A stretch of DNA of 48,430 bases, from the IMG/VR virus record IMGVR_UViG_3300005655_000001. One strand, 5' to 3'. How positions within the stretch are numbered: position 1 is the first letter of the stretch; each line of letters opens with the position of its first letter. Source of the stretch: a virus. Shown here piece after piece: positions 1 to 8,726 of the stretch. Position numbers and translations under genes: made by a program. Below the pieces are notes generated by a model. It did not search any database. It was not told the DNA's origin and was given only the letters and a program-made list of their open reading frames with translations.

Positions 1-120
1 GCTGGCGCGAATGAAAAGCGGCCTCGACGGCCTGGCCGACGTGCTGGGCGTGGATGACAAGCACTGGAGCCTGAGCATTGCCCGGGCCGAAGAAATCGGC
101 GGCATGGTGAAGGTGGAGGT
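1..120. repeat. Terminal redundancy: bases 1-120 are identical to 48311-48430 (circular-assembly overlap)
   Basis: Direct comparison of the first two and last two sequence lines. The repeat lies inside one continuous reading frame (RusA). Confidence 0.95.
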
Positions 121-133
121 GACGAATGTCTGA
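1..133 (+). CDS. rusA: RusA-family Holliday junction resolvase, 3' portion (continues from 48102..48430 across the circular junction)
   Basis: The frame from ATG 48102 stays open to the window end and continues in phase to TGA 131-133. The tail reads ...DLDNMLARMKSGLDGLADVLGVDDKHWSLSIARAEEIGGMVKVEVTNV. Confidence 0.8.
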   Translation, partial: LARMKSGLDGLADVLGVDDKHWSLSIARAEEIGGMVKVEVTNV

Positions 134-587
134 GCGCCTTGTCCTGCGCCTCGTAAACGCGCAACAGGGCCATCAGGCCATCAAACACGCATGGGAGTTC
201 GCCAAGGGCTGGATCATGGGCAGCGGTGGCGCCATGGTGCTGGAGGTGCGCCCAGAAACCCGCAGCGACCGGCAAAACAAGCTCTTGCACGCCCTGTTCG
301 GTGACGTTTCAAAGCAGGCCGAATGGATGGGCAAGAAGCGCAGCCCGGAGGAATGGAAGCTGCTGTTTGTGTCCGGCCACTCAGTCGCCACAAAGCAGGG
401 TGCCGACCTGGTGCCAGGGCTGGAGGGCGAATTCCTTAATTTGCGCGAAAGCACGGCACGCATGGGCAAAGCGCGCATGGCGTCGCTTTTGGAATATGTG
501 ATGGCCTGGTGCGCAGAGCACGGTGTAGAGCTGCGCGACGCCCGGCAGTGGGTGGATCCGGAAACAGGCGAGGTGATGCATGCATAG
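126..587 (+). CDS. ninB: NinB/Orf-family recombination mediator
   Basis: 153 aa. ATG 126 overlaps the RusA stop. The motif 'RSDRQNKLLHALFGDV' and the size fit the NinB family, and it sits in a nin-like region next to RusA. Confidence 0.65.
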   Translation: MSERLVLRLVNAQQGHQAIKHAWEFAKGWIMGSGGAMVLEVRPETRSDRQNKLLHALFGDVSKQAEWMGKKRSPEEWKLLFVSGHSVATKQGADLVPGLEGEFLNLRESTARMGKARMASLLEYVMAWCAEHGVELRDARQWVDPETGEVMHA

Positions 588-846
588 CAAAAACAAACCA
601 AAGCCCACCGCAGCAGAGCGCCGCCACATAGAGCGCGTAGCGGCCCTTGCATGCGTGGTGTGCGACGCGCCAGGGCCCAGCCATGTCCATGAGCCAGAGC
701 AGGGGCTGTGGCACGTTTCCGTAGCGCTGTGCCCAGCCTGTCACACAGGACATGACGGATGGCACGGCACCCGCCTGCGCTGGAAGCTTCGCCGCATGAA
801 CGAGCTGCAGGCCATCAATCGCACCGTGGCGCAGGTTTTGAACTGA
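580..846 (+). CDS. Small Cys/His-rich protein, Ref/HNH-like recombination-associated nuclease candidate
   Basis: 88 aa with GAGG RBS. The pattern 'ERRHIERVAALACVVCDAPGPSHVHEP...ALCPACH' recalls the Ref-family layout from memory. Not verified. Confidence 0.35.
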   Translation: MHSKNKPKPTAAERRHIERVAALACVVCDAPGPSHVHEPEQGLWHVSVALCPACHTGHDGWHGTRLRWKLRRMNELQAINRTVAQVLN

Positions 847-858
847 AATGGAGAACAG

Positions 859-1362
859 ATGATTACTGAAAGCCAACTGGCGCGCCGATACCACGCGCTT
901 TCCGTCAACTGCAAAAAAGTCTATGACGCGGTGCCCATCTCGGAGCCGTGGTCAACGTCTTACATCCTTTCAGAAATTCAAAGACTGTGCAGCTACACGT
1001 CAAACATGCGGGTTTTGACGGGAAGCCTTCAAGCCCTCAAGGCATCCGGCCTTGTGCAAGAGCCACAAAAGGGCCTTTTTTTGAGGACGCCAATCAAGCC
1101 AGGCAAGGACGAATCAGAAGCCGAGCCGCTTGAGGCCGCAAAGCAGTCAGAACTAACCACCAAGGAAGAAGCCCCTATGCCAACAGCCCAAAAGCCCCCC
1201 CGCAACCCCATGACGATCTTGTCCGAGTTGGCAACCCGCTGCAAAGCGCTGGCCGACGAAATCGAGACTGCCGCGCTGGAGATTGACGAATACGTGACAG
1301 CAAAGGATGTTGACGCCGGGAAGTTGAAGCAATTGCAGGCGCTGCTGAAAGGGCTTGCTTGA
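859..1362 (+). CDS. Hypothetical protein (N-terminal winged-helix-like region, C-terminal coiled coil)
   Basis: 167 aa with GGAG RBS 7 nt upstream and high third-position GC. Confidence 0.6.
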   Translation: MITESQLARRYHALSVNCKKVYDAVPISEPWSTSYILSEIQRLCSYTSNMRVLTGSLQALKASGLVQEPQKGLFLRTPIKPGKDESEAEPLEAAKQSELTTKEEAPMPTAQKPPRNPMTILSELATRCKALADEIETAALEIDEYVTAKDVDAGKLKQLQALLKGLA

Positions 1363-1625
1363 TGGACGCCGGGAGGATGTTGATTGAAGCGCAGATGCAC
1401 CTGGAGTGCATGAACGAGGCGTTACTCGAAATTGAGTTCGCCAAGCCTAGCAAAGAGCGCAAGCGCGTCATCAACGCCGAATTGAGCGCGCGTCTTTGGG
1501 CCGCCATTCACATCACCCAGAGCGTGCGGCTAGGCCGGGAAGACAAAGAGCTGATCGATACGTTGCGTGAGGCGCGCCGATTCAACAACGTAGATGACGC
1601 ACCGGGCCAAGAAGGCTTGCACTGA
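1362..1625 (+). CDS. Hypothetical protein
   Basis: The first true ATG is at 1362, overlapping the upstream TGA (TGATG). The track start at 1359 is TTG. Confidence 0.5.
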   Translation: MDAGRMLIEAQMHLECMNEALLEIEFAKPSKERKRVINAELSARLWAAIHITQSVRLGREDKELIDTLREARRFNNVDDAPGQEGLH

Positions 1626-1636
1626 CAAGGGGAAAC

Positions 1637-2044
1637 ATGCTGATGCGCGTACAAGAAGCCGTCGATTACAGCCACGTTAACGAAATGCACGCCGATATCC
1701 ATTCGCGCCTTGAGAACTGGCGCCGCTGGGTGATAGTGCGCCCCCATGGCTGGTGCACCCATCCCATGTTCAAAAACTTTCGCGCCTCAAGGCAGTGGGA
1801 GGCATCCCCGCACATCAGCACCCCTGTTGATACGCTTGACGCAGCTCTAATCGAAAAAGCAGTCTATGCGCTACCAGACAAGCACCGCGATGCGATCCGC
1901 TGGTGGTATGTGCACGCGGGCAATCCGGTAGCGATGGCGCGCAGACTTGGAGTGAGCAAGCAGGGGCTAGCTGATCTCGTCTGTGTTGGCCGGACGATGC
2001 TGAAAAACCTGATTGGTACGTCCCAAAAATCCCACTACAGGTAG
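1637..2044 (+). CDS. Q-type late-gene antiterminator candidate (P22 gp23-like)
   Basis: 135 aa. It has 'LENWRRW' near the N-terminus and a C-terminal HTH-like 'AIRWWYVHAGNPVAMARRLGVSKQGLADLV'. It is the last gene of the rightward nin-like operon. Confidence 0.55.
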   Translation: MLMRVQEAVDYSHVNEMHADIHSRLENWRRWVIVRPHGWCTHPMFKNFRASRQWEASPHISTPVDTLDAALIEKAVYALPDKHRDAIRWWYVHAGNPVAMARRLGVSKQGLADLVCVGRTMLKNLIGTSQKSHYR

Positions 2045-2091
2045 CCCAAAAATTCCGCTACACCTGTTCCAAAAATTCCGCTACAGGTGGT
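2023..2091. repeat. Three direct repeats at exact 23-bp spacing (core CCAAAAAT(T)CC(C/G)(A/C)CTACA)
   Basis: CCAAAAAT cores start at 2023, 2046 and 2069. A 7-bp inverted repeat CACCTGT/ACAGGTG (2061-2067 / 2083-2089) lies within the array. The array spans the stop codons of two convergent genes. Confidence 0.9.
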
Positions 2092-2300
2092 GCGGCATCC
2101 CCTATAGGGCGCAGGCCAGCCTCCAGCGCGGCGCAGGCCAGGGCCACGGCACGCCCTGCCTCGATTGGCTTGCCAGTGGTGCGACTGATGCCGCGCCTCC
2201 AGTCTTTATAGGCGGCATAGGACACCCCTAGCAGCTCAGCGGCAGCCAGCCCGGTGATTTTCATACGCGCCTGCCATGCGCGCAGGTCTGTTGGGGTCAT
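2058..2300 (-). CDS. XRE/Cro-type helix-turn-helix protein (gene F of the accessory operon)
   Basis: 80 aa from the internal ATG at 2300 (ATGA overlap with the upstream gene). 'LRAWQARMKITGLAAAELLGVSYAAYKDWRRG' is a typical HTH. Confidence 0.65.
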   Translation of the reverse strand: MTPTDLRAWQARMKITGLAAAELLGVSYAAYKDWRRGISRTTGKPIEAGRAVALACAALEAGLRPIGDAAPPVAEFLEQV

Positions 2301-2470
2301 GCGCTGCCCTTTTCGATTCGCTGTAGTAGCCAGTCCGTCAACTTCATGCCGCATGCGCGGCTTTCCCGCACCCATTGGGCTTTGATTGCCATAGGCACGC
2401 GCAAATGCACCTGGGCATCAGGTGGATGCTCAGGTGCTGGCGCGGGTTGTTTTTTATGCTGTGACGTCAT
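2297..2470 (-). CDS. Ribbon-helix-helix (CopG/Arc-like) protein candidate (gene E)
   Basis: 57 aa ORF below the track cutoff, translated by hand. 'VHLRVPMAIKAQWVRESRACGMKLTDWLLQRIEK' has beta-strand plus two-helix RHH character. Confidence 0.5.
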   Translation of the reverse strand: MTSQHKKQPAPAPEHPPDAQVHLRVPMAIKAQWVRESRACGMKLTDWLLQRIEKGSA

Positions 2471-2630
2471 TTAGTCGGGCCAGGATGGATCCCATGTCGC
2501 CGGTAATTCCCCAGTCCTGGGGGTTTTTGTCCATGTGCTGCGCGCTGCGCTCTATGACGGACTTGATGTGCTCAATCTGGGCCAGCGCTGCGGCTGTCAG
2601 CTCTTGATGCTGTTTTTGGGCTTGGGTCAT
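2454..2630 (-). CDS. Hypothetical small protein (gene D)
   Basis: 58 aa ORF translated by hand (MTQAQKQHQELTAAALAQIEHIKSVIERSAQHMDKNPQDWGITGDMGSILARLNDVTA). It has a GAGGGG RBS and an ATGA overlap with gene C. Confidence 0.5.
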   Translation of the reverse strand: MTQAQKQHQELTAAALAQIEHIKSVIERSAQHMDKNPQDWGITGDMGSILARLNDVTA

Positions 2631-2875
2631 GATGGCATCCCCTCGATGATTGTCGAGTGGGTCACGCGGCCCATGAATTCACTGCTGCTCTCCGTAATTT
2701 TCCCGTCGCGCAAAAACATCAGCAGATCACGCGCAACGGCTGCGCGTTTGGCGCCCTGCACCACATAACAGATATCTTCATGGCCAAAAGCTGGAGATCG
2801 GGCAAGCGACAACACTATATCGTTGCCATGACGGCTCTTTACAAGGTTGTTCAGGTCGTTGATTGTTTGTCTCAT
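2627..2875 (-). CDS. Hypothetical protein (gene C)
   Basis: 82 aa from ATG 2875, preceded by AGGAG. The longer track ORF (to 3031) would run through gene B. Confidence 0.6.
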   Translation of the reverse strand: MRQTINDLNNLVKSRHGNDIVLSLARSPAFGHEDICYVVQGAKRAAVARDLLMFLRDGKITESSSEFMGRVTHSTIIEGMPS

Positions 2876-2919
2876 GATGTTTGCTCCTATCAGGATTCCC
2901 GGATCCGCCGGGCCGGTGC
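2872..2919 (-). repeat. 48-nt conserved translation-initiation leader, copy 1 (upstream of gene C)
   Basis: Minus-sense GCACCGGCCCGGCGGATCCGGGAATCCTGATAGGAGCAAACATCATGA. It matches the copy at 3260-3307 at 44 of 48 positions and contains a CCCGG/CCGGG stem-loop. Confidence 0.9.
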
Positions 2920-3087
2920 CATGTACTTTGAAAAAGCGGCATCCTCGATGCGGCTGTATGTGCTTTTGACGCCAGCAGTGTCGATCACCAGCAGGTATGT
3001 GCTCTTGTCGGTGTAGCGGGCGCGTGCCCACTCCACGACGCGCCGGTACTTCTCGATGCGCCGGTATTTCTCGATGCGGGGGTTCAT
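2890..3087 (-). CDS. Hypothetical protein with tandem RIEKYRR duplication (gene B)
   Basis: 65 aa with an ATGA overlap with gene A. An 18-bp tandem repeat at 3040-3078 encodes RIEKYR-RIEKYR. Confidence 0.5.
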   Translation of the reverse strand: MNPRIEKYRRIEKYRRVVEWARARYTDKSTYLLVIDTAGVKSTYSRIEDAAFSKYMAPARRIRES

Positions 3088-3263
3088 GGCTTTGTCCCCT
3101 TGTCGTTCAGCGCTGCGATGATGATGCGGCCTGCGTCCACGGCCAGCAGCCCGGTGTTGCGACGTGCCTCCATGAATTCGTTTGCCTGGGCCATGCCCTC
3201 GGCGGTGTCGGGGTACTCGGCCACGATGGCGAAGTCCAGTCCCCAGAGTCGGTAGGTGTTCAT
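3084..3263 (-). CDS. Hypothetical small protein (gene A)
   Basis: 59 aa from ATG 3263, preceded by AGGAG (MNTYRLWGLDFAIVAEYPDTAEGMAQANEFMEARRNTGLLAVDAGRIIIAALNDKGTKP). Confidence 0.55.
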   Translation of the reverse strand: MNTYRLWGLDFAIVAEYPDTAEGMAQANEFMEARRNTGLLAVDAGRIIIAALNDKGTKP

Positions 3264-3307
3264 GATGTTTTCTCCTATCAGGACTCCCGGAGCCGCCGGG
3301 CCAGTGC
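3260..3307 (-). repeat. 48-nt conserved translation-initiation leader, copy 2 (upstream of gene A)
   Basis: Minus-sense GCACTGGCCCGGCGGCTCCGGGAGTCCTGATAGGAGAAAACATCATGA. Confidence 0.9.
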
Positions 3308-3329
3308 GCCAGGTGTAGCGCATGGGTAG

Positions 3330-3359
3330 ATTATAAGCTCAAAAAGCGCCAGAACGCAA
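3330..3359 (-). promoter_or_regulatory. Sigma70-type promoter for the minus-strand accessory operon
   Basis: Minus-sense TTGCGT, 18-bp spacer, TATAAT (perfect -10 at 3330-3335). The spacer contains the 15-bp box. Confidence 0.6.
3337..3351. promoter_or_regulatory. Operator-like box GCTCAAAAAGCGCCA, copy 1 (in the spacer of the minus promoter)
   Basis: Exact 15-mer repeated at 3402-3416. A degenerate third copy (ACTCAAAAGAGCGCA) lies at 3433-3447. Confidence 0.6.
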
Positions 3360-3393
3360 GCAAAAAGAATAGAAAAGTTTTTGCATAAAATAC

Positions 3394-3422
3394 TTGCATT
3401 GGCTCAAAAAGCGCCATACAAT
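3394..3422 (+). promoter_or_regulatory. Sigma70-type promoter for the 3487..4833 gene
   Basis: TTGCAT (3394-3399), 17-bp spacer, TACAAT (3417-3422). The spacer contains the 15-bp box. Confidence 0.65.
3402..3416. promoter_or_regulatory. Operator-like box GCTCAAAAAGCGCCA, copy 2 (in the spacer of the plus promoter)
   Basis: Exact repeat of 3337-3351. Confidence 0.6.
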
Positions 3423-3486
3423 ACACACATGCACTCAAAAGAGCGCACCGCCCAGGCGGCACCTGGCACCTTTGAAGGATCACATC

Positions 3487-4833
3487 ATGAGCAAAGCCAA
3501 AACCCTCGACCTCTTCGCCAAACTTGAGGCAGCGCCTACCTATAACAGCACCGTTACTGTGCGCAGCGGTCGGGCCATGTTGAAAATCAACACAAAGAAC
3601 TTGGCAGCTCGTGCCCGTTCCCTGAAAAACTGCCATCGCAAGCCAGCTCAGAAAGCAGTCGTTCGGACATACCCTAAATTTTCCCCTGGCATGAGCACTG
3701 CCGAATATGTATTAAAGTTTTCCGCCGCAAATGGCGTATCCGCGGACGTTCTCCCGTTCGATCTTTCTCAATACGCCGCCCCGTGTGCTCTGTACGAAAA
3801 CGGCGCGCTGGATTTTGACGTTATCGAAGAGCAGATCGAAGAATCGCAAGAACTGCCGCAAATTGACGCCATCCCTGAATCTGCCGAAGGTGCGGCGCCG
3901 TGGGCCGATGTGCTTGCATCCTCTGTCGAATCCATCGGTGCCATGGAAGAGGGCGCGTTTTCCCTCATGGTTGGGGCGTTCGAGGATATCAACTACCACA
4001 GCGAATCACTGATGGTGCGCTGCTTGAGGGCTGGCCGTGAAGACTTGGCGTCAGCAGTTGCGCACCTGTTGCGCTTGCAAAATTCACCAGAATACAGAGG
4101 CTTGAACGGCGCGCAGTGCGACGCGCGGGCGGCTGTCTCGGCCATGCTTGCAGGCGAATCTGTCGCACACATCAGCGATGCAGCGGCGTCAATTCTTGCC
4201 TCGTGGGGGCTTGTTATTCGTAAGCCTCAAGCGTCTGAAGCATTTGCAGCCATGATTCGAGCCGCGCGCGAAGCAAAGCGCATCGCTCGCAAGGCCATCG
4301 CCCAGGCCAGCGCGTCAAGTGCTCAGTCAGTCCCGGACGATGCAGACGGAAACCCGTACCCGTACCTGCAGCCCATTTCAGACACACACAGCGGCGGAGT
4401 CGCTGCAGCAAAAAATATCCGGCTCGTCCTTAAAAATCAGTTCCCAGGCGTGAAATTCAAGGTCACCAGCGATTACAGCTCAGTCAACGTGCGCTGGATT
4501 GATGGCCCCACATGCGGCGCAGTTGATGATGCGCTGTCGCCTTTCGATATCGGCCACAGCGACAGCCAATCAGACTACTTTTACACCGAGCGCACGCGGT
4601 TTAGCGAACAATTCGGCGGAGTGCAATACCTTTTCACACATCGCGAACTGAGCGAATCGAAGATTACCGCAAGCCTCAATGCAGTCTTCGGGGAAGATGG
4701 CCCGACTCTTGCAGAGTGGAAAGCCGGGACGCCGTGGGCGCAGGTCGCCCGCAAAGGCTCATACCGTGACGCGCAGATGTGGGACCAATACGAATGGCTT
4801 TCCATGGTTCGGCGCCACGCGAACGAAAAATAA
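3487..4833 (+). CDS. 448-aa protein of unknown function; the C-terminal domain resembles an LPD29-type polyvalent-protein domain
   Basis: ATG 3487 follows a GAAGGA RBS, downstream of the predicted TSS. The C-terminus reads 'NIRLVLKNQFPGVKFKVTSDYSSVNVRWIDGPT...DIGHSDSQSDYFYTERTRF'. The family assignment is from memory only. Confidence 0.6.
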   Translation: MSKAKTLDLFAKLEAAPTYNSTVTVRSGRAMLKINTKNLAARARSLKNCHRKPAQKAVVRTYPKFSPGMSTAEYVLKFSAANGVSADVLPFDLSQYAAPCALYENGALDFDVIEEQIEESQELPQIDAIPESAEGAAPWADVLASSVESIGAMEEGAFSLMVGAFEDINYHSESLMVRCLRAGREDLASAVAHLLRLQNSPEYRGLNGAQCDARAAVSAMLAGESVAHISDAAASILASWGLVIRKPQASEAFAAMIRAAREAKRIARKAIAQASASSAQSVPDDADGNPYPYLQPISDTHSGGVAAAKNIRLVLKNQFPGVKFKVTSDYSSVNVRWIDGPTCGAVDDALSPFDIGHSDSQSDYFYTERTRFSEQFGGVQYLFTHRELSESKITASLNAVFGEDGPTLAEWKAGTPWAQVARKGSYRDAQMWDQYEWLSMVRRHANEK

Positions 4834-4845
4834 ACTTCGAATCAC

Positions 4846-4874
4846 TTGCACAGCCAGAAAATATATGGCATAGT
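4846..4874 (+). promoter_or_regulatory. Sigma70-like promoter (candidate late promoter PR' or sRNA promoter)
   Basis: TTGCAC (4846-4851), 17-bp spacer, CATAGT (4869-4874). A -10-like CATTAGT follows at 4881-4887. Confidence 0.4.
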
Positions 4875-4954
4875 CGCCGCCATTAGTCAGCATCAGCATT
4901 AGGACTTGCCCTGCTTGCGCAGGGCGACCCGCCTGAAAACAAAGCTGACCACAA

Positions 4955-4985
4955 GCCCGCCCAGAGAAATCGCGGCGGGTTTTTG
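4955..4985 (+). terminator. Rho-independent terminator
   Basis: CCCGCC ... GGCGGG stem followed by TTTTT (4980-4984). Confidence 0.65.
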
Positions 4986-5063
4986 CGTTTGCAAACAAAC
5001 GAGCCCACAAAGCGCTACGAACGCGATGCGGGCTCTGACCAATCGGACTGAAAAGGAGTCATC

Positions 5064-5537
5064 ATGGCTAAGCAAATTCTAACGCTAGAGCGTCTCAAAG
5101 AACTATTTCATTACGATCCGTTGATTGGTCGTTTTACCACGCTGAAGGCCAGGTCTGCTGGCTGGGTGGAGCATGATGGTTACCTCCGGGTGTCTATTGA
5201 CGGGCGAAATTACAGCTGCCATAGATTGGCCTGGCTTTATGTGTTTGGTGTTCACCCCAGCGGCGAGATAGATCACATAGACGGCTGCAAGACGAACAAC
5301 AGCATTGCCAACTTGCGCGATGTACCGCGAAAGACAAATTCGGAGAATGCTCGGGCAGCGCATCGGCACAACAAGTCCGGTTTGCTAGGTGTTCAAGCCA
5401 AAAAGACAGGCCAGTTTGAGGCGTGGATTCAAGCTGCTGGCATGCGCCACTATCTTGGATCATTCCGCAATGCGGATGCCGCACACCAAGCATACGTAGA
5501 GGCAAAACGCAGGCTGCATGAAGGCTGCACCATTTAA
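5064..5537 (+). CDS. HNH (HNH_3-type) plus AP2-domain homing endonuclease, copy 1
   Basis: 157 aa. It has 'CHRLAWLYVFG...IDHIDGCKTNNSIANLR' followed by AP2-like 'SGLLGVQAKKTGQFEAWIQAAGMRHYLGSFRNADAAHQAY'. A paralogue lies at 42556..43044. Confidence 0.8.
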   Translation: MAKQILTLERLKELFHYDPLIGRFTTLKARSAGWVEHDGYLRVSIDGRNYSCHRLAWLYVFGVHPSGEIDHIDGCKTNNSIANLRDVPRKTNSENARAAHRHNKSGLLGVQAKKTGQFEAWIQAAGMRHYLGSFRNADAAHQAYVEAKRRLHEGCTI

Positions 5538-5543
5538 CACAAG

Positions 5544-5573
5544 CCCCGCCCGGTTCGCCGCGTGGGGTTTTTT
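5544..5573 (+). terminator. Rho-independent terminator with UUCG tetraloop
   Basis: CCCCGCCCGG-TTCG-CCGCGTGGGG (one mismatch, one G-U pair) followed by T6. Confidence 0.7.
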
Positions 5574-5754
5574 CGTTCGTGGGCCGCAGCGTCACCATCT
5601 ATGGCTTTGTCCACTGGCTGCGCGCCCACACCCATCACCTCCCCCGGAAGCTGAACGGGTCTCCTGCGGCTGCCCAGCCGTCATCAGCAGAGTGGCGACG
5701 GCAGCAGCCAGCCCGCAAGGGTAGTCCTATGGCGGGCAGAACACAAGGAAGTCC

Positions 5755-6000
5755 ATGGTCTACACATCTGACAACGTAATGCTCGGTACTCGCGTCTATG
5801 ACGTGGGCGCCAATGCAGAGATCGGCAAGGTGATGGAGGTCAACACGTCGGCTGGATGGATCAAGGTGGTTGATGAGCCTGTGCGCGCAAACCGGCATGA
5901 CCATCTGGTCACACGGCGAATTCGATTCGAGCGCATCTACCCCATCAAGGGGCTTGAGGTGTTTCCGTGCCTGTTCCACTGCTACGGGCGGAAGGCGTGA
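5755..6000 (+). CDS. Hypothetical protein
   Basis: 81 aa with AAGGAAG RBS. Confidence 0.55.
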   Translation: MVYTSDNVMLGTRVYDVGANAEIGKVMEVNTSAGWIKVVDEPVRANRHDHLVTRRIRFERIYPIKGLEVFPCLFHCYGRKA

Positions 6001-6002
6001 CC

Positions 6003-6275
6003 ATGGCCCCCGAGACCTACCCAAAGCGCGAAGTGTGGATGGAGTACGACTGCCCCAACGGAGCAGACAACGACCTGCACGACGACAGCCTGGTTTACAA
6101 GGGCCAGCGCTTCACCTGCGCCATCTGTGGCAATGAGCACACCGCAGGCGTTGACGTGCAGATCGGCGTCGGGGTAGATGTCCTGATCGCCCCGTGCGAG
6201 TACGACTACAGCCAGCGCCAGTTTGTTGACTTACCCGAGTCGGCTGAGGCTTTGCGCAAGCTGGTGGAGGGATGA
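6003..6275 (+). CDS. Hypothetical protein with a CxxC...CxxC zinc-ribbon-like motif
   Basis: 90 aa from ATG 6003 (GGAAGG RBS, 2 nt after the upstream stop). It contains 'CPNG...CAICG'. Confidence 0.5.
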   Translation: MAPETYPKREVWMEYDCPNGADNDLHDDSLVYKGQRFTCAICGNEHTAGVDVQIGVGVDVLIAPCEYDYSQRQFVDLPESAEALRKLVEG

Positions 6276-6318
6276 CCATGGGAGGCGACGCAAGCATTGA
6301 AGGCTTGGACGATTGACC

Positions 6319-6465
6319 ATGGCATCCATGACCATCAAAGTTCGCATTGCATGGTGGGTGCGCTGGTATATCTCCGGCGTGGCGCTGCGCGCATTCATCA
6401 CGGGTGCACATCCCGACATGGAGAAGATCACGGCCACGGTCATGAAGGGCGTCAGGATCACATGA
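6319..6465 (+). CDS. Hypothetical 48-aa protein
   Basis: Hand-translated MASMTIKVRIAWWVRWYISGVALRAFITGAHPDMEKITATVMKGVRIT. Third-position GC is about 77%. I prefer it to the His-rich track ORF 6297..6500. Confidence 0.35.
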   Translation: MASMTIKVRIAWWVRWYISGVALRAFITGAHPDMEKITATVMKGVRIT

Positions 6466-6501
6466 CCCTAGCTCGCCTCCCCAACAGGCTGGCTCCATAG
6501 C

Positions 6502-6810
6502 ATGTCATACGACAACACCGACGGGCGGCTAAGAGGCAGGAAGCTCCAGGCCGCACGACTGCGGATATGGAGCAACAACCCGCACTGCGCGCGCTGCGGA
6601 AAGCTGGTCGCATACCCGCACGGCTTCGAGCTGGATCACATCAAGGCGCTGCACAAGGATGGCAGCACCAACGACGACGACAACATGCAGGTGTTGTGCA
6701 TCGAGGTCAAGGACGGCGTGAAGGTCGGATGCCACATCGACAAGACCGCAGAGGACATGGGCTACGCCAAGCGGGCTCGGTTCGATGCGAGTGGGCGCGT
6801 GGTGTGGTGA
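6502..6810 (+). CDS. HNH endonuclease (terminase-associated type)
   Basis: 102 aa with 'CARCG...ELDHIKALHKDGSTNDDDNMQVLC...CH'. It sits upstream of the packaging genes, as in HK97-like cos phages. Confidence 0.8.
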   Translation: MSYDNTDGRLRGRKLQAARLRIWSNNPHCARCGKLVAYPHGFELDHIKALHKDGSTNDDDNMQVLCIEVKDGVKVGCHIDKTAEDMGYAKRARFDASGRVVW

Positions 6811-6993
6811 CACTGGGGTGGACGTGCTGCCAATCAATCGCGCGTCCTGAGCGCATCTAGTGGGCTTGCAGTGGCAGGCAACTGGGCAGGGGGGGGCATC
6901 AGGTCTTTGGCGCCTTTTGCCTGGAAACCGGCCTGTACTTGCTTTGCGCACACCCGCGAAATGGCAATAGGGGGTTGAACCCCCGAGGAATAA

Positions 6994-8247
6994 ATGAAAA
7001 CGCACCCTGTCATCGTCAGCCGCAAGGTTGAGGATTTAATACCCTACGCGCGCAACAGCCGCACGCACAGCGATGCGCAGGTAGCGCAGATCGCGGCCAG
7101 CGTGCGCGAGTTCGGCTGGACGAACCCCGTGCTGGTGGACGGCGAGAACGGAATTATTGCGGGCCATGGCCGCATCCTTGCCGCGCGCAAGCTGGGTATG
7201 GACGAAGTGCCGTGCATTGAGCTGGCTGGGCTGACCGACACGCAGCGGCGCGCTTACATCATTGCGGATAACAAGCTGGCGCTGAATGCGGGATGGGACG
7301 ATGAGCTGCTGGCGATTGAGTTTGCCGAGCTGGCTGATGCTGGTTTCGACAACCTGCTGACCGGTTTCACGCAAGACGAGATTGACGCGCTGACGCCCGA
7401 GCAAATTCCCGAAGGCTTGACGGACGAGGACGCTGTGCCCGAGTTGCAGGCCGAGCCGGTGAGCAAGCTGGGCGACGTTTGGCTGCTTGGTAGGCATCGG
7501 GTGATGTGCGGGGATTCGACCAGCATTGATGCGTTCGGCGCGCTCATGGGCGGACAGTCGGCAGACATGGTTTTCACAGACCCTCCTTATGGCATGAGCT
7601 ACGAGGGCGGTCGTGGAAAGAAGAATTTCGGGATGATTAAGGGAGACGACGCACAAGGCGACAGCCTGATTGCGCTAGTTCAGGAGGCATTGGCTACAGC
7701 CAAGTCCCGAAGCAAAGATGGATCTGCCTTCTATGTGTGTTTCCCGTGGCGGACTTATGCGGAATTCGAGGGCGCACTTAAATCCTGCGGGGTTGAGGTG
7801 AGTGCCTGCATCGTGTGGGACAAGAAGAGCATTGGCCTTGGGCATCAGCACTACCGGCCACAGCATGAGTTCATTTTCTACAGCAAGGGCGGCAACTTCC
7901 ATGGCGACCGCAGCGAATCGGACGTCTGGTACATGGGGCGCGGCAACACAGGCGCGTATGTGCACCCGACGCAAAAGCCGGTCGAACTGGTCGAGAGAGC
8001 CGTTGGCAACAGCAGCAAGGCCGGCGATATCGTCGTGGATTGCTTCGGCGGATCAGGCTCGACGCTCATTGCCTGCGAGAAAACCGGCCGCCACGCCCGC
8101 CTGATGGAGCTTGACCCAAAGTATGTGGACGTGATCGTTCGCCGCTGGTGCGAATTCACTGGCAAGCAGGCCACACACGAAGCCACGGGCGCGACGTTTG
8201 CCGAGGTCGAGGCCGATAGCGCGCTGGCGATTCCCGAGGACGTATGA
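6994..8247 (+). CDS. ParB-like nuclease domain fused to an N6A/N4C DNA methyltransferase
   Basis: 417 aa. The N-terminal ParB-N-like region reads 'IPYARNSRTHSDAQVAQIAASVREFGWTNPVLV...GHGR'. The catalytic motif is 'TDPPYG' and the SAM motif is 'VVDCFGGSGST'. Confidence 0.85.
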   Translation: MKTHPVIVSRKVEDLIPYARNSRTHSDAQVAQIAASVREFGWTNPVLVDGENGIIAGHGRILAARKLGMDEVPCIELAGLTDTQRRAYIIADNKLALNAGWDDELLAIEFAELADAGFDNLLTGFTQDEIDALTPEQIPEGLTDEDAVPELQAEPVSKLGDVWLLGRHRVMCGDSTSIDAFGALMGGQSADMVFTDPPYGMSYEGGRGKKNFGMIKGDDAQGDSLIALVQEALATAKSRSKDGSAFYVCFPWRTYAEFEGALKSCGVEVSACIVWDKKSIGLGHQHYRPQHEFIFYSKGGNFHGDRSESDVWYMGRGNTGAYVHPTQKPVELVERAVGNSSKAGDIVVDCFGGSGSTLIACEKTGRHARLMELDPKYVDVIVRRWCEFTGKQATHEATGATFAEVEADSALAIPEDV

Positions 8248-8726
8248 CAGTCGGACGTAAGCCTACGCCGACAGCGCTCAAACTTGTCACTGGCAACAGA
8301 GGCAAGCGCGCCGTCAACAAGGCCGAGGCCGTGGTCGCCCTGGCCGAGCCGACACCGCCCGCGTTCCTGTGCGACGACGCCAAGGTCGAATGGGGCCGCG
8401 TGTGCAGCGCCCTGTACGCCGCTGGCCTGATGACGGAGCTAGACCGCGCCGCGCTGGCCGCCTACGCCGCCGCCTATGGGCGCTGGGCGCAAGCAGAGCG
8501 GGCGCTGAATCGGATGGCCGCCAAGGATGAATTAAACGCGGCGCTGATGATTAAGACCGTCAGCGGCAACGCCATACAAAACCCGCTCGTCGGGATCGCA
8601 AACAAGGCCAAGGCCGACATGGTGCGCTATGCCGCCGAGTTCGGCATGACCCCTTCGGCGCGCTCCCGCGTCACTGCGACCCCTGATGACAAGAAGCAAG
8701 AAGACAAAGCCGCCCGCTATTTCTGA
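8244..8726 (+). CDS. Terminase small subunit (P27 family-like)
   Basis: 160 aa with 'GRKPTPTALKLVTGNRGKR', '...QNPLVGIANKA...' and 'FGMTPSARSRV'. It is immediately upstream of TerL. Confidence 0.8.
   Translation: MTVGRKPTPTALKLVTGNRGKRAVNKAEAVVALAEPTPPAFLCDDAKVEWGRVCSALYAAGLMTELDRAALAAYAAAYGRWAQAERALNRMAAKDELNAALMIKTVSGNAIQNPLVGIANKAKADMVRYAAEFGMTPSARSRVTATPDDKKQEDKAARYF

Follow-up and report, generated by a model that had tools for sequence, protein, structure and literature searches.

The IMG/VR virus record IMGVR_UViG_3300005655_000001, a stretch of 48,430 nucleotides referred to here as the window, carries at positions 2045-4990 an accessory cassette of seven genes with their own control elements, and this cassette is the subject of the present analysis. 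Six small genes lie on the minus strand in the order A (3084-3263, 59 aa), B (2890-3087, 65 aa), C (2627-2875, 82 aa), D (2454-2630, 58 aa), E (2297-2470, 57 aa) and F (2058-2300, 80 aa), and a divergent gene, G (3487-4833, 448 aa), lies on the plus strand. The cargo genes A-D, encoding an acidic protein (A, isoelectric point (pI) 4.8), a basic one (B), a third protein (C) and one predicted to be helical (D), precede two regulator genes, namely E for a stand-alone ribbon-helix-helix (RHH) protein and F for a helix-turn-helix (HTH) regulator of the anti-CRISPR-associated (Aca) type. The G protein ends in an LPD29 domain, which an acidic, disordered linker joins to a variable N-terminal half. 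An earlier note on this DNA had described the locus by a minus-strand operon, a divergent gene for a 448-aa protein, paired promoters with a shared box and a terminator, and all four were found where it had placed them. Its claim that the operon genes are chained by ATGA or overlapping junctions held for A/B, C/D and E/F (ATGA overlaps) and for D/E (a 17-nt overlap), but not for B/C, which are separated by a 14-nt gap within a repeated leader. The cassette also has its own terminator, as had been proposed, that is a plus-strand hairpin with a U-run behind G at ~4953-4990, where a 106-nt stretch gave z = -4.0; a strong G+C hairpin without a U-run, UUGCCCUGC-UUGC-GCAGGGCGA, lies ~30 nt upstream of it (4906-4927). 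Also borne out was the view of the locus as an accessory cassette, self-contained and under its own regulation, that occupies a slot with the nin/Q region on one side and the terminase genes on the other.

Two promoters stand back to back between A and G. P(-), the promoter of the A-F operon (3331-3359, minus strand), consists of TTGCGT (reverse complement of 3354-59), a 17-bp spacer and TATAAT (reverse complement of 3331-36), and P(+), the promoter of G (3394-3422, plus strand), of TTGCAT (3394-99), a 17-bp spacer and TACAAT (3417-22). Their description as near-consensus sigma70 promoters fits the -10 hexamers, which agree with the consensus at six of six positions in P(-) and five of six in P(+), but not the -35 hexamers, which agree with TTGACA at TTG only (3/6); a consensus scanner listed neither promoter. 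The identical 15-bp box predicted for both spacers was confirmed as the exact 15-mer GCTCAAAAAGCGCCA at 3337-3351 and 3402-3416. This box is a quasi-palindrome, GCKC-TTTTT-GAGC, within the 17-bp spacer, i.e. an inverted repeat and putative operator inside the core promoter, and in the relatives L007 and L008 it is retained at both sites with the same promoter layout.

A 48-nt direct repeat at 2872-2919 and 3260-3307 (92% identical), overlooked in the earlier note, proved to be the core of a conserved 5′ leader that precedes genes A, C and G. In summary form the leader comprises a hairpin P1, CCCGGCGGNNCCGGG and a hairpin sequestering the Shine-Dalgarno sequence (SD); in full it runs from the -10 hexamer through ~6 nt, CCATG, the variable P1, ACCGC, P2 (CCCGG-CGGNN-CCGGG), two nucleotides (NN), P3 (TCCT-GAT-AGGA), which holds the SD, and GCAACATC to the ATG. 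A covariance model detected three copies in the window and no further match in the rest of the 48 kb. The leader of the A-F operon (3261-3322, minus strand; 63.7 bits) carries P1, P2 CCCGGCGGCTCCGGG and P3 with the SD; the internal leader before C (2873-2934, minus strand; 68.5 bits) is without P1, carries P2 CCCGGCGGATCCGGG and P3/SD TCCTGATAGGAG, and overlaps the last codons of B; and the leader of G (3430-3489, plus strand; 44.4 bits, E = 2.6e-11) is a diverged copy with P2 CCAGG-CGGCA-CCTGG and P3 CCTT/AAGG, and its match is also present in L007 and L008. Upstream of the internal copy lies a degenerate operator box, GCCGCTTTTTCAAAG, at 2925-2939, and the 3′ end of the B coding sequence extends into the old leader. 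Because of this degenerate box and the internal leader, A-B and C-F resemble a pair of promoter-leader cassettes linked head to tail. The search of Rfam 15 gave no leader match at E ≤ 1 within 1500-5600.

The thermodynamic stability of the leader is by itself unremarkable (z about -1 to +1), and the case for it rests on conservation and covariation. Across 42 distinct sequences, 97.9% of the cells were paired and double changes occurred at five of the nine P2/P3 pairs, counts obtained on a model-fitted alignment, which hence lean towards structure; the covariation was above 500 of 500 shuffles and all slid-register controls. Thirty different P1 sequences all fold, with a mean z of -2.1. We lean towards RNA as the target form of the leader, judging from the G-U pairs that it tolerates and from the conserved, asymmetric CGG in the loop of P2. 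Control of the CsrA type was considered and dropped, the GGA being located in the stem and not in the loop. A recent preprint predicts an ‘Aca10-associated’ 5′ untranslated region (5′UTR) RNA motif with covariation (bioRxiv 10.64898/2026.07.27.740549), which we assume to be the same element.

Both operon-terminal proteins were assigned to DNA-binding folds as the earlier note had suggested. E, noted as RHH-like, aligned with residues 6-45 of the N-domain of the anti-CRISPR (Acr) protein AcrIF25 (PDB 8jdh; phmmer, E = 1.6e-11) and with the N-terminus of AcrIC6 (55% identity, E = 3e-12), but with its 57 aa it covers the N-terminal RHH only and is without the C-terminal effector domain of AcrIF25 and AcrIC6. 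The active part of AcrIF25 is its C-terminal domain, a Cas7 mimic (PMC13131331), and its N-domain has been described as an RHH that Acr activity does not require, with a role as a built-in regulator suggested for it (bioRxiv 10.64898/2026.07.27.740549). Because E is without the C-terminal Cas7-mimicking domain that holds the Acr activity, it is not predicted to be an Acr. The E gene overlaps D and F and for this reason is uncalled in every public copy of the phage, and small RHH genes of the E family are probably under-annotated. A word-index search with E retrieved only three near-identical proteins, and a full HMMER scan, used in its place, yielded a family of 190 clusters. Among the best 150 of these 190 clusters, 51 are stand-alone and 80 carry an N-terminal RHH plus an extension; the 83 C-terminal extensions of the RHH fall into 53 unrelated families. 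The commonest C-terminal partner is the ~100-aa AcrIC6 C-domain (...DLRLARD..GDVSFD...PGRA; proteins P0107-P0255), which is a separate gene in L018 and has no Pfam family; one E-F fusion protein is known (P0255). A ‘group-13’ C-domain fused to many RHHs was considered as AcrIF25-like and rejected, as the RHH alone aligns. A tblastn search with E and F together against phages gave no match.

F was confirmed as HTH-type, although by itself it gave only weak HTH matches (Pfam, P22 C2). When a profile of nine F homologues (A4) was searched against PDB, the top chains were Aca10 (7xi5; E = 0.0025 over 39 residues) and Aca1 (E = 0.04). Comparison of the F family by hhalign gave 95.8% over 45 columns with Aca10, and 94% (E = 1.5e-7) over 57 columns with the Aca1 of JBD30, for which the BLASTP alignment spans just 25 residues. 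F is terminal in the operon in nine of the F- or RHH-seeded loci.

The four cargo proteins are as unrecognisable as they had been said to be, none matching Pfam, PHROGs, NCBIfam, PADLOC or PDB, and searching peptide strings in the literature gave no hits. By tblastn, A is ~47% identical to part of hypothetical proteins of the Pseudomonas phages 8P and vB_PaeM_USP_18/25. B has a 68-aa relative with 37% identity (E = 8e-10) in the corresponding operon of the Burkholderiaceae prophage L016, and a tblastn search with B against plasmids gave no match; the exact B sequence is missing from the public protein collection in which the other genes of the phage are present, and an 18-nt tandem duplication at 3030-3070 makes RIEKYR occur twice in it. 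C is unique, with a protein cluster of one member, and its single-sequence AlphaFold2 model (mean predicted local distance difference test score (pLDDT) 67.5) had no meaningful Foldseek match. D has a 64%-identical homologue in L029, with an LPD29 gene on one side and an HTH gene on the other. No close relatives of C and D were found in IMG/VR.

Comparison with related loci indicates that this cargo is exchanged while E and F are retained. In L007, whose E and F are 95% and 94% identical to those of the window, one unrelated gene of 163 aa stands in place of A-D, flanked by the same leader and by the same E and F, and in L008 the RHH carries this 163-aa domain as a fusion. A non-coding scar between the unrelated cargo gene and E in L007 (3175-3215) preserves the final 11 codons of D (AILARLNDVTA*) and marks the right-hand swap junction. 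The first genes behind the leader encode 40 distinct proteins of 49-173 aa that belong to 30 unrelated families, many of them with a pI of ~4.1 and AcrIC7 among them. Directly behind a leader copy in L016 lies a gene for a RadC-like JAB-domain protein (2902-3451), and vWA-like genes lie between the RHH and F in L011 (2755-3564). Judged by these sequence comparisons, A-D are swappable cargo, which is new. The conserved linkage of the seven genes, on which the earlier note had made its proposal depend, was only partly found: many loci keep E and F together, and one other arrangement has both D and G, but A-D are not conserved as a set.

Residues 307-388 of G match LPD29 (PF18847) with 55.5 bits against a cut-off of 27. 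Among its 62 homologues the C-terminal half is conserved and the N-terminal half variable, and the AlphaFold2 model, with pLDDT above 90 for residues 300-448, is confident in the LPD29 domain only. Foldseek with this model found no PDB neighbour (best E = 0.2) and in BFVD yielded LPD proteins only. Distant LPD29 genes occur in small-gene operons terminated by an HTH gene in the same slot, convergent with NinB/NinG (L029-L032), one of them with the D homologue. LPD29 genes have been reported in aca4 operons with a suggested anti-defence role (preprint).

The association of leader, RHH and HTH was assessed across about 90 loci. A leader-seeded scan of IMG/VR retrieved 24 contigs, 21 of which had enough downstream DNA, and an RHH was encoded 200-950 nt downstream of the leader in 20 of these 21. 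The accompanying HTH varied, being F-type in 11 (there downstream of the RHH), Aca10 in three, Aca4/KorA-like in four and absent in three. Conversely, when 31 evaluable viral loci were seeded with RHHs of at least 50% identity, the leader was found upstream on the same strand in 29, and it was present in all 11 true genomic RHH-seeded loci, which come from Burkholderiales, Alcanivorax, Marinobacter, Aquimonas, Denitratimonas and Pseudomonas. The leader was missing from all three loci with F only. RHHs of 34-41% identity accompany diverged leaders of the same architecture, e.g. with P2 CCAAG-CGGGA-CTTGG. The third HTH type adjoining the RHH is KorA/TrfB-like, as Aca4 has also been described. 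The leader thus tracks the RHH domain and not any single HTH family; and the promoter inverted repeats differ between loci, whereas the P2/P3 sequence of the leader is near-invariant. On the simplest reading, the variable HTH would pair with the variable promoter operator, and the conserved RHH with the conserved leader.

We put forward, tentatively and at somewhat less than even odds, that the RHH module, whether as stand-alone E or as the N-domain of AcrIC6 or AcrIF25, may be the dedicated trans-factor of a widespread, near-invariant three-hairpin leader before anti-defence genes in phages of beta- and gammaproteobacteria, forming a translational layer that would not depend on the HTH Aca partner and could be carried over among at least three families of it (F-type, Aca10 and Aca4). 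Several observations weigh against binding of the leader by E, besides the way in which the covariation counts were obtained. Covariation as such would fit a DNA palindrome as well as an RNA hairpin, no RHH is encoded near the leader in L031 and L050, and AcrIC6 has been reported as a weak Acr and not as a regulator (PMC7913775). As general background, the RHH proteins are a classical group of DNA binders, among which one that binds RNA would be unusual. From L031 and L050 it follows that the leader can work without a cis-encoded RHH.

The same two loci, having the leader with an HTH and without an RHH, would suit a different assignment, by which the leader is bound by the HTH protein F in the manner of Aca2 and Aca1, and E is otherwise employed as a remnant of an RHH-Acr fusion, as a second binder of the DNA operator or as a weak Acr like AcrIC6. 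Aca2 and Aca1 do bind RNA hairpins in their own 5′UTRs, and the RNA motif predicted for aca10 operons was credited to Aca10. However, a near-invariant leader accompanies HTH proteins from three unrelated families (F, Aca10 and Aca4/KorA-like) or none at all, F-only loci are without it, and diverged RHHs go with diverged leaders; moreover, purified Aca10 failed to bind the predicted motif, and no co-evolution of Aca10 with the motif was seen (bioRxiv 10.64898/2026.07.27.740549). We regard HTH binding of the leader as unlikely. If the RHH is instead the trans-factor, this would explain why Aca10 did not bind ‘its’ RNA motif, why AcrIC6 is ubiquitous and yet a weak Acr, and why dozens of unrelated effector domains are fused to one RHH, and it would make an RHH a binder of RNA hairpins.

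Taken as a whole, the cassette is probably an Aca-regulated anti-defence locus of the acr-aca type, belonging to an uncultivated phage of Comamonadaceae-like bacteria. It has the regulator behind small cargo genes, the inverted repeat in the core promoter and the combination of conserved regulators with variable cargo that characterise such loci, and an anti-defence locus was one of the options listed in the earlier note. Three further points count against this assignment. No validated or homologous Acr or anti-defence cargo was recognised among A-D and G in PDB, Pfam, PHROGs, NCBIfam or PADLOC, so that their anti-defence activity and its targets are inferred through guilt by association. phmmer with F alone retrieved neither Aca10 nor Aca1. 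Finally, by its profile matches F appears to be a remote relative of Aca10 (WP_074980464 / 7xi5) and Aca1, and no member of the Aca10 family.

The other functions considered for the locus differ in what the cargo would do. In a toxin-antitoxin, abortive-infection or superinfection-exclusion module, as the earlier note had also contemplated, a toxin or exclusion factor would be sought among A-D or G, with E and F as antitoxin-type autorepressors. RHH or HTH autorepressors at operon ends are indeed typical of type II toxin-antitoxin systems, and Aca6, Aca9 and Aca10 resemble HigA-type antitoxins (PMC9410906). However, none of the seven proteins matched PADLOC or the toxin families of Pfam and NCBIfam, and no toxin or defence component was found in PDB either; the closest characterised relatives of the regulators are Acr and Aca proteins; and the cargo is hypervariable, often strongly acidic and includes the validated AcrIC7, which would be unexpected for toxin partners. 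A module of this kind is thus very improbable. Somewhat less remote, but still rather unlikely, is an early moron-like accessory operon with the same regulators, whose cargo would serve host takeover or other non-immune roles and whose likeness to acr-aca loci would reflect a shared mobile expression platform only. Such an operon would accommodate the RadC-like JAB and vWA-like proteins among the leader-associated cargo and the fact that most Aca-associated genes are unannotated, and the leader and the RHH gene could double as homology arms for cassette exchange; a remnant of D is present in L007. Nevertheless, the cargo of this platform is anti-CRISPR wherever it was tested (AcrIC7, AcrIC6 and AcrIF25), and LPD domains are predicted to be anti-defence.

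As an acr-aca locus, the cassette may work as follows. Upon entry of the DNA, host sigma-70 RNA polymerase would fire from two strong back-to-back promoters, one driving A-B-C-D-E-F and the other G. A-D and the LPD29 protein G would be the effectors, most likely inhibiting host immunity such as CRISPR-Cas or restriction, and E and F would be the regulators that end the early burst. F is expected to bind the GCKC-TTTTT-GAGC box in both promoter spacers and to block transcription, and E the leader before A, C and G, most probably as RNA, so stabilising the SD-hiding hairpin and blocking translation; alternatively, E bound to the DNA form of the leader could block elongation. Control would thereby be exerted in two layers, by the HTH on the promoter box and by the RHH on the leader. 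Aca-type autorepression is a better-precedented way of switching the operon off than the antisense late transcription that had been envisaged.

With A-D and the LPD29 protein, the locus adds five uncharacterised proteins to the candidates for immune inhibitors, from a host group that has been little studied; it is a pair of regulators, and not homology, that points to them. For finding anti-defence loci, the leader together with the RHH is a sharper handle than a single Aca family of any kind, having retrieved 30 unrelated families of first-gene cargo in the loci collected. If the RHH-leader link is true, it would add a second, portable regulator to acr biology, and AcrIC6 and the N-domain of AcrIF25 would have to be reinterpreted.

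The surroundings of the cassette were delineated by Pfam matches. The phage genome is ~48 kb, and near-identical contigs are present in several metagenomes, one of them binned in a metagenome-assembled genome of ‘Giesbergeria sp.’; megablast of positions 1-8300 against phages gave no match. The gene order is NinB, a weakly Q-like gene (1637-2044), the cassette, two HNH genes, a ParB-methyltransferase fusion, terminase and portal, and the label ‘Q’ is backed solely by a weak PHROG match (phrog_79, E = 6e-4). The two HNH endonuclease genes and the fusion of ParB_N with an N6/N4 DNA methyltransferase lie at 5064-5537, 6502-6810 and 6994-8247, between the cassette and the terminase genes. At the other border, a tandem array of three 23-bp units, which resemble CCCAAAAATTCCGCTACAGGT and contain phased A-tracts, extends over 2020-2088 and covers the stop codons at which the Q-like gene and F converge, and three to four copies are kept at the same position in L007, L008 and L009. 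Whether this array belongs to the cassette is uncertain; candidate roles are a protein-binding array, DNA bending and a barrier to convergent transcription.

Among known systems, G resembles the LPD29/polyvalent proteins (Iyer 2017, PMC5512222) by its confident LPD29 domain, but it is a solo 448-aa protein with a lineage-variable N-terminal half and not a giant polyvalent protein. E is homologous to the N-terminal RHH of AcrIF25 (PDB 8jdh, 8jdi) and is without its C-terminal Cas7-mimicking domain. By architecture E may be compared with Aca14, an RHH-type Aca (bioRxiv 10.64898/2026.07.27.740549), which likewise stands in the aca position. Aca14 (WP_005725436.1) represses an adjacent operon as well as the one that encodes it; its binding site is an AT-rich inverted repeat that extends into the -10, and no RNA motif is on record for it. 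With the dual DNA/RNA control by Aca2 and Aca1 (Birkholz 2024; bioRxiv 10.64898/2026.07.27.740549) the window has in common an inverted repeat in the promoter and structured 5′UTR hairpins by the SD, as well as copies of the motif between genes and before neighbouring operons. In those systems, however, one HTH protein does both jobs, whereas the leader found in the window goes with a distinct RHH domain, alongside an HTH that differs between loci.

The nearest known counterpart is the experimentally studied operon acrIC7-acrIC6-aca10 of Pseudomonas citronellolis (Leon 2021, PMC7913775; Lee 2022, PMC9410881), which was recovered as L026. There a 94-aa acidic protein is assigned to AcrIC7, a 144-aa RHH protein to AcrIC6 and a 65-aa HTH protein to Aca10, and the locus carries the published promoter TTGCAA-N16-TATTCT and the Aca10 site IR2, AATACGCTCATTGAGCGTATT (PMC9410881). 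AcrIC6 has been reported as a weak Acr of broad distribution, always found beside acrIC7 with aca4 or aca10 (PMC7913775). L026 and the window share a sigma-70 promoter with an inverted repeat in the spacer, the three-hairpin leader, small acidic cargo, an RHH protein and a terminal small HTH repressor, and the half-site GCTCA/TGAGC of L026 resembles the box of the window. They differ in that the RHH of the window is a stand-alone protein of 57 aa without the AcrIC6 C-domain, F is only remotely related to Aca10, four unrelated cargo genes and an internal leader copy are present, and both box and leader recur on a divergent LPD29 operon. With regulators, operator layout and a pattern of variable cargo that are those of known acr-aca operons, the cassette is not the undescribed system for which it had been taken but an ordinary kind of element. 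What is new is its cargo and the RHH-leader association, which goes a little beyond the current literature, and the box and leader shared by two divergent operons make it a neat example of multi-operon Aca control.

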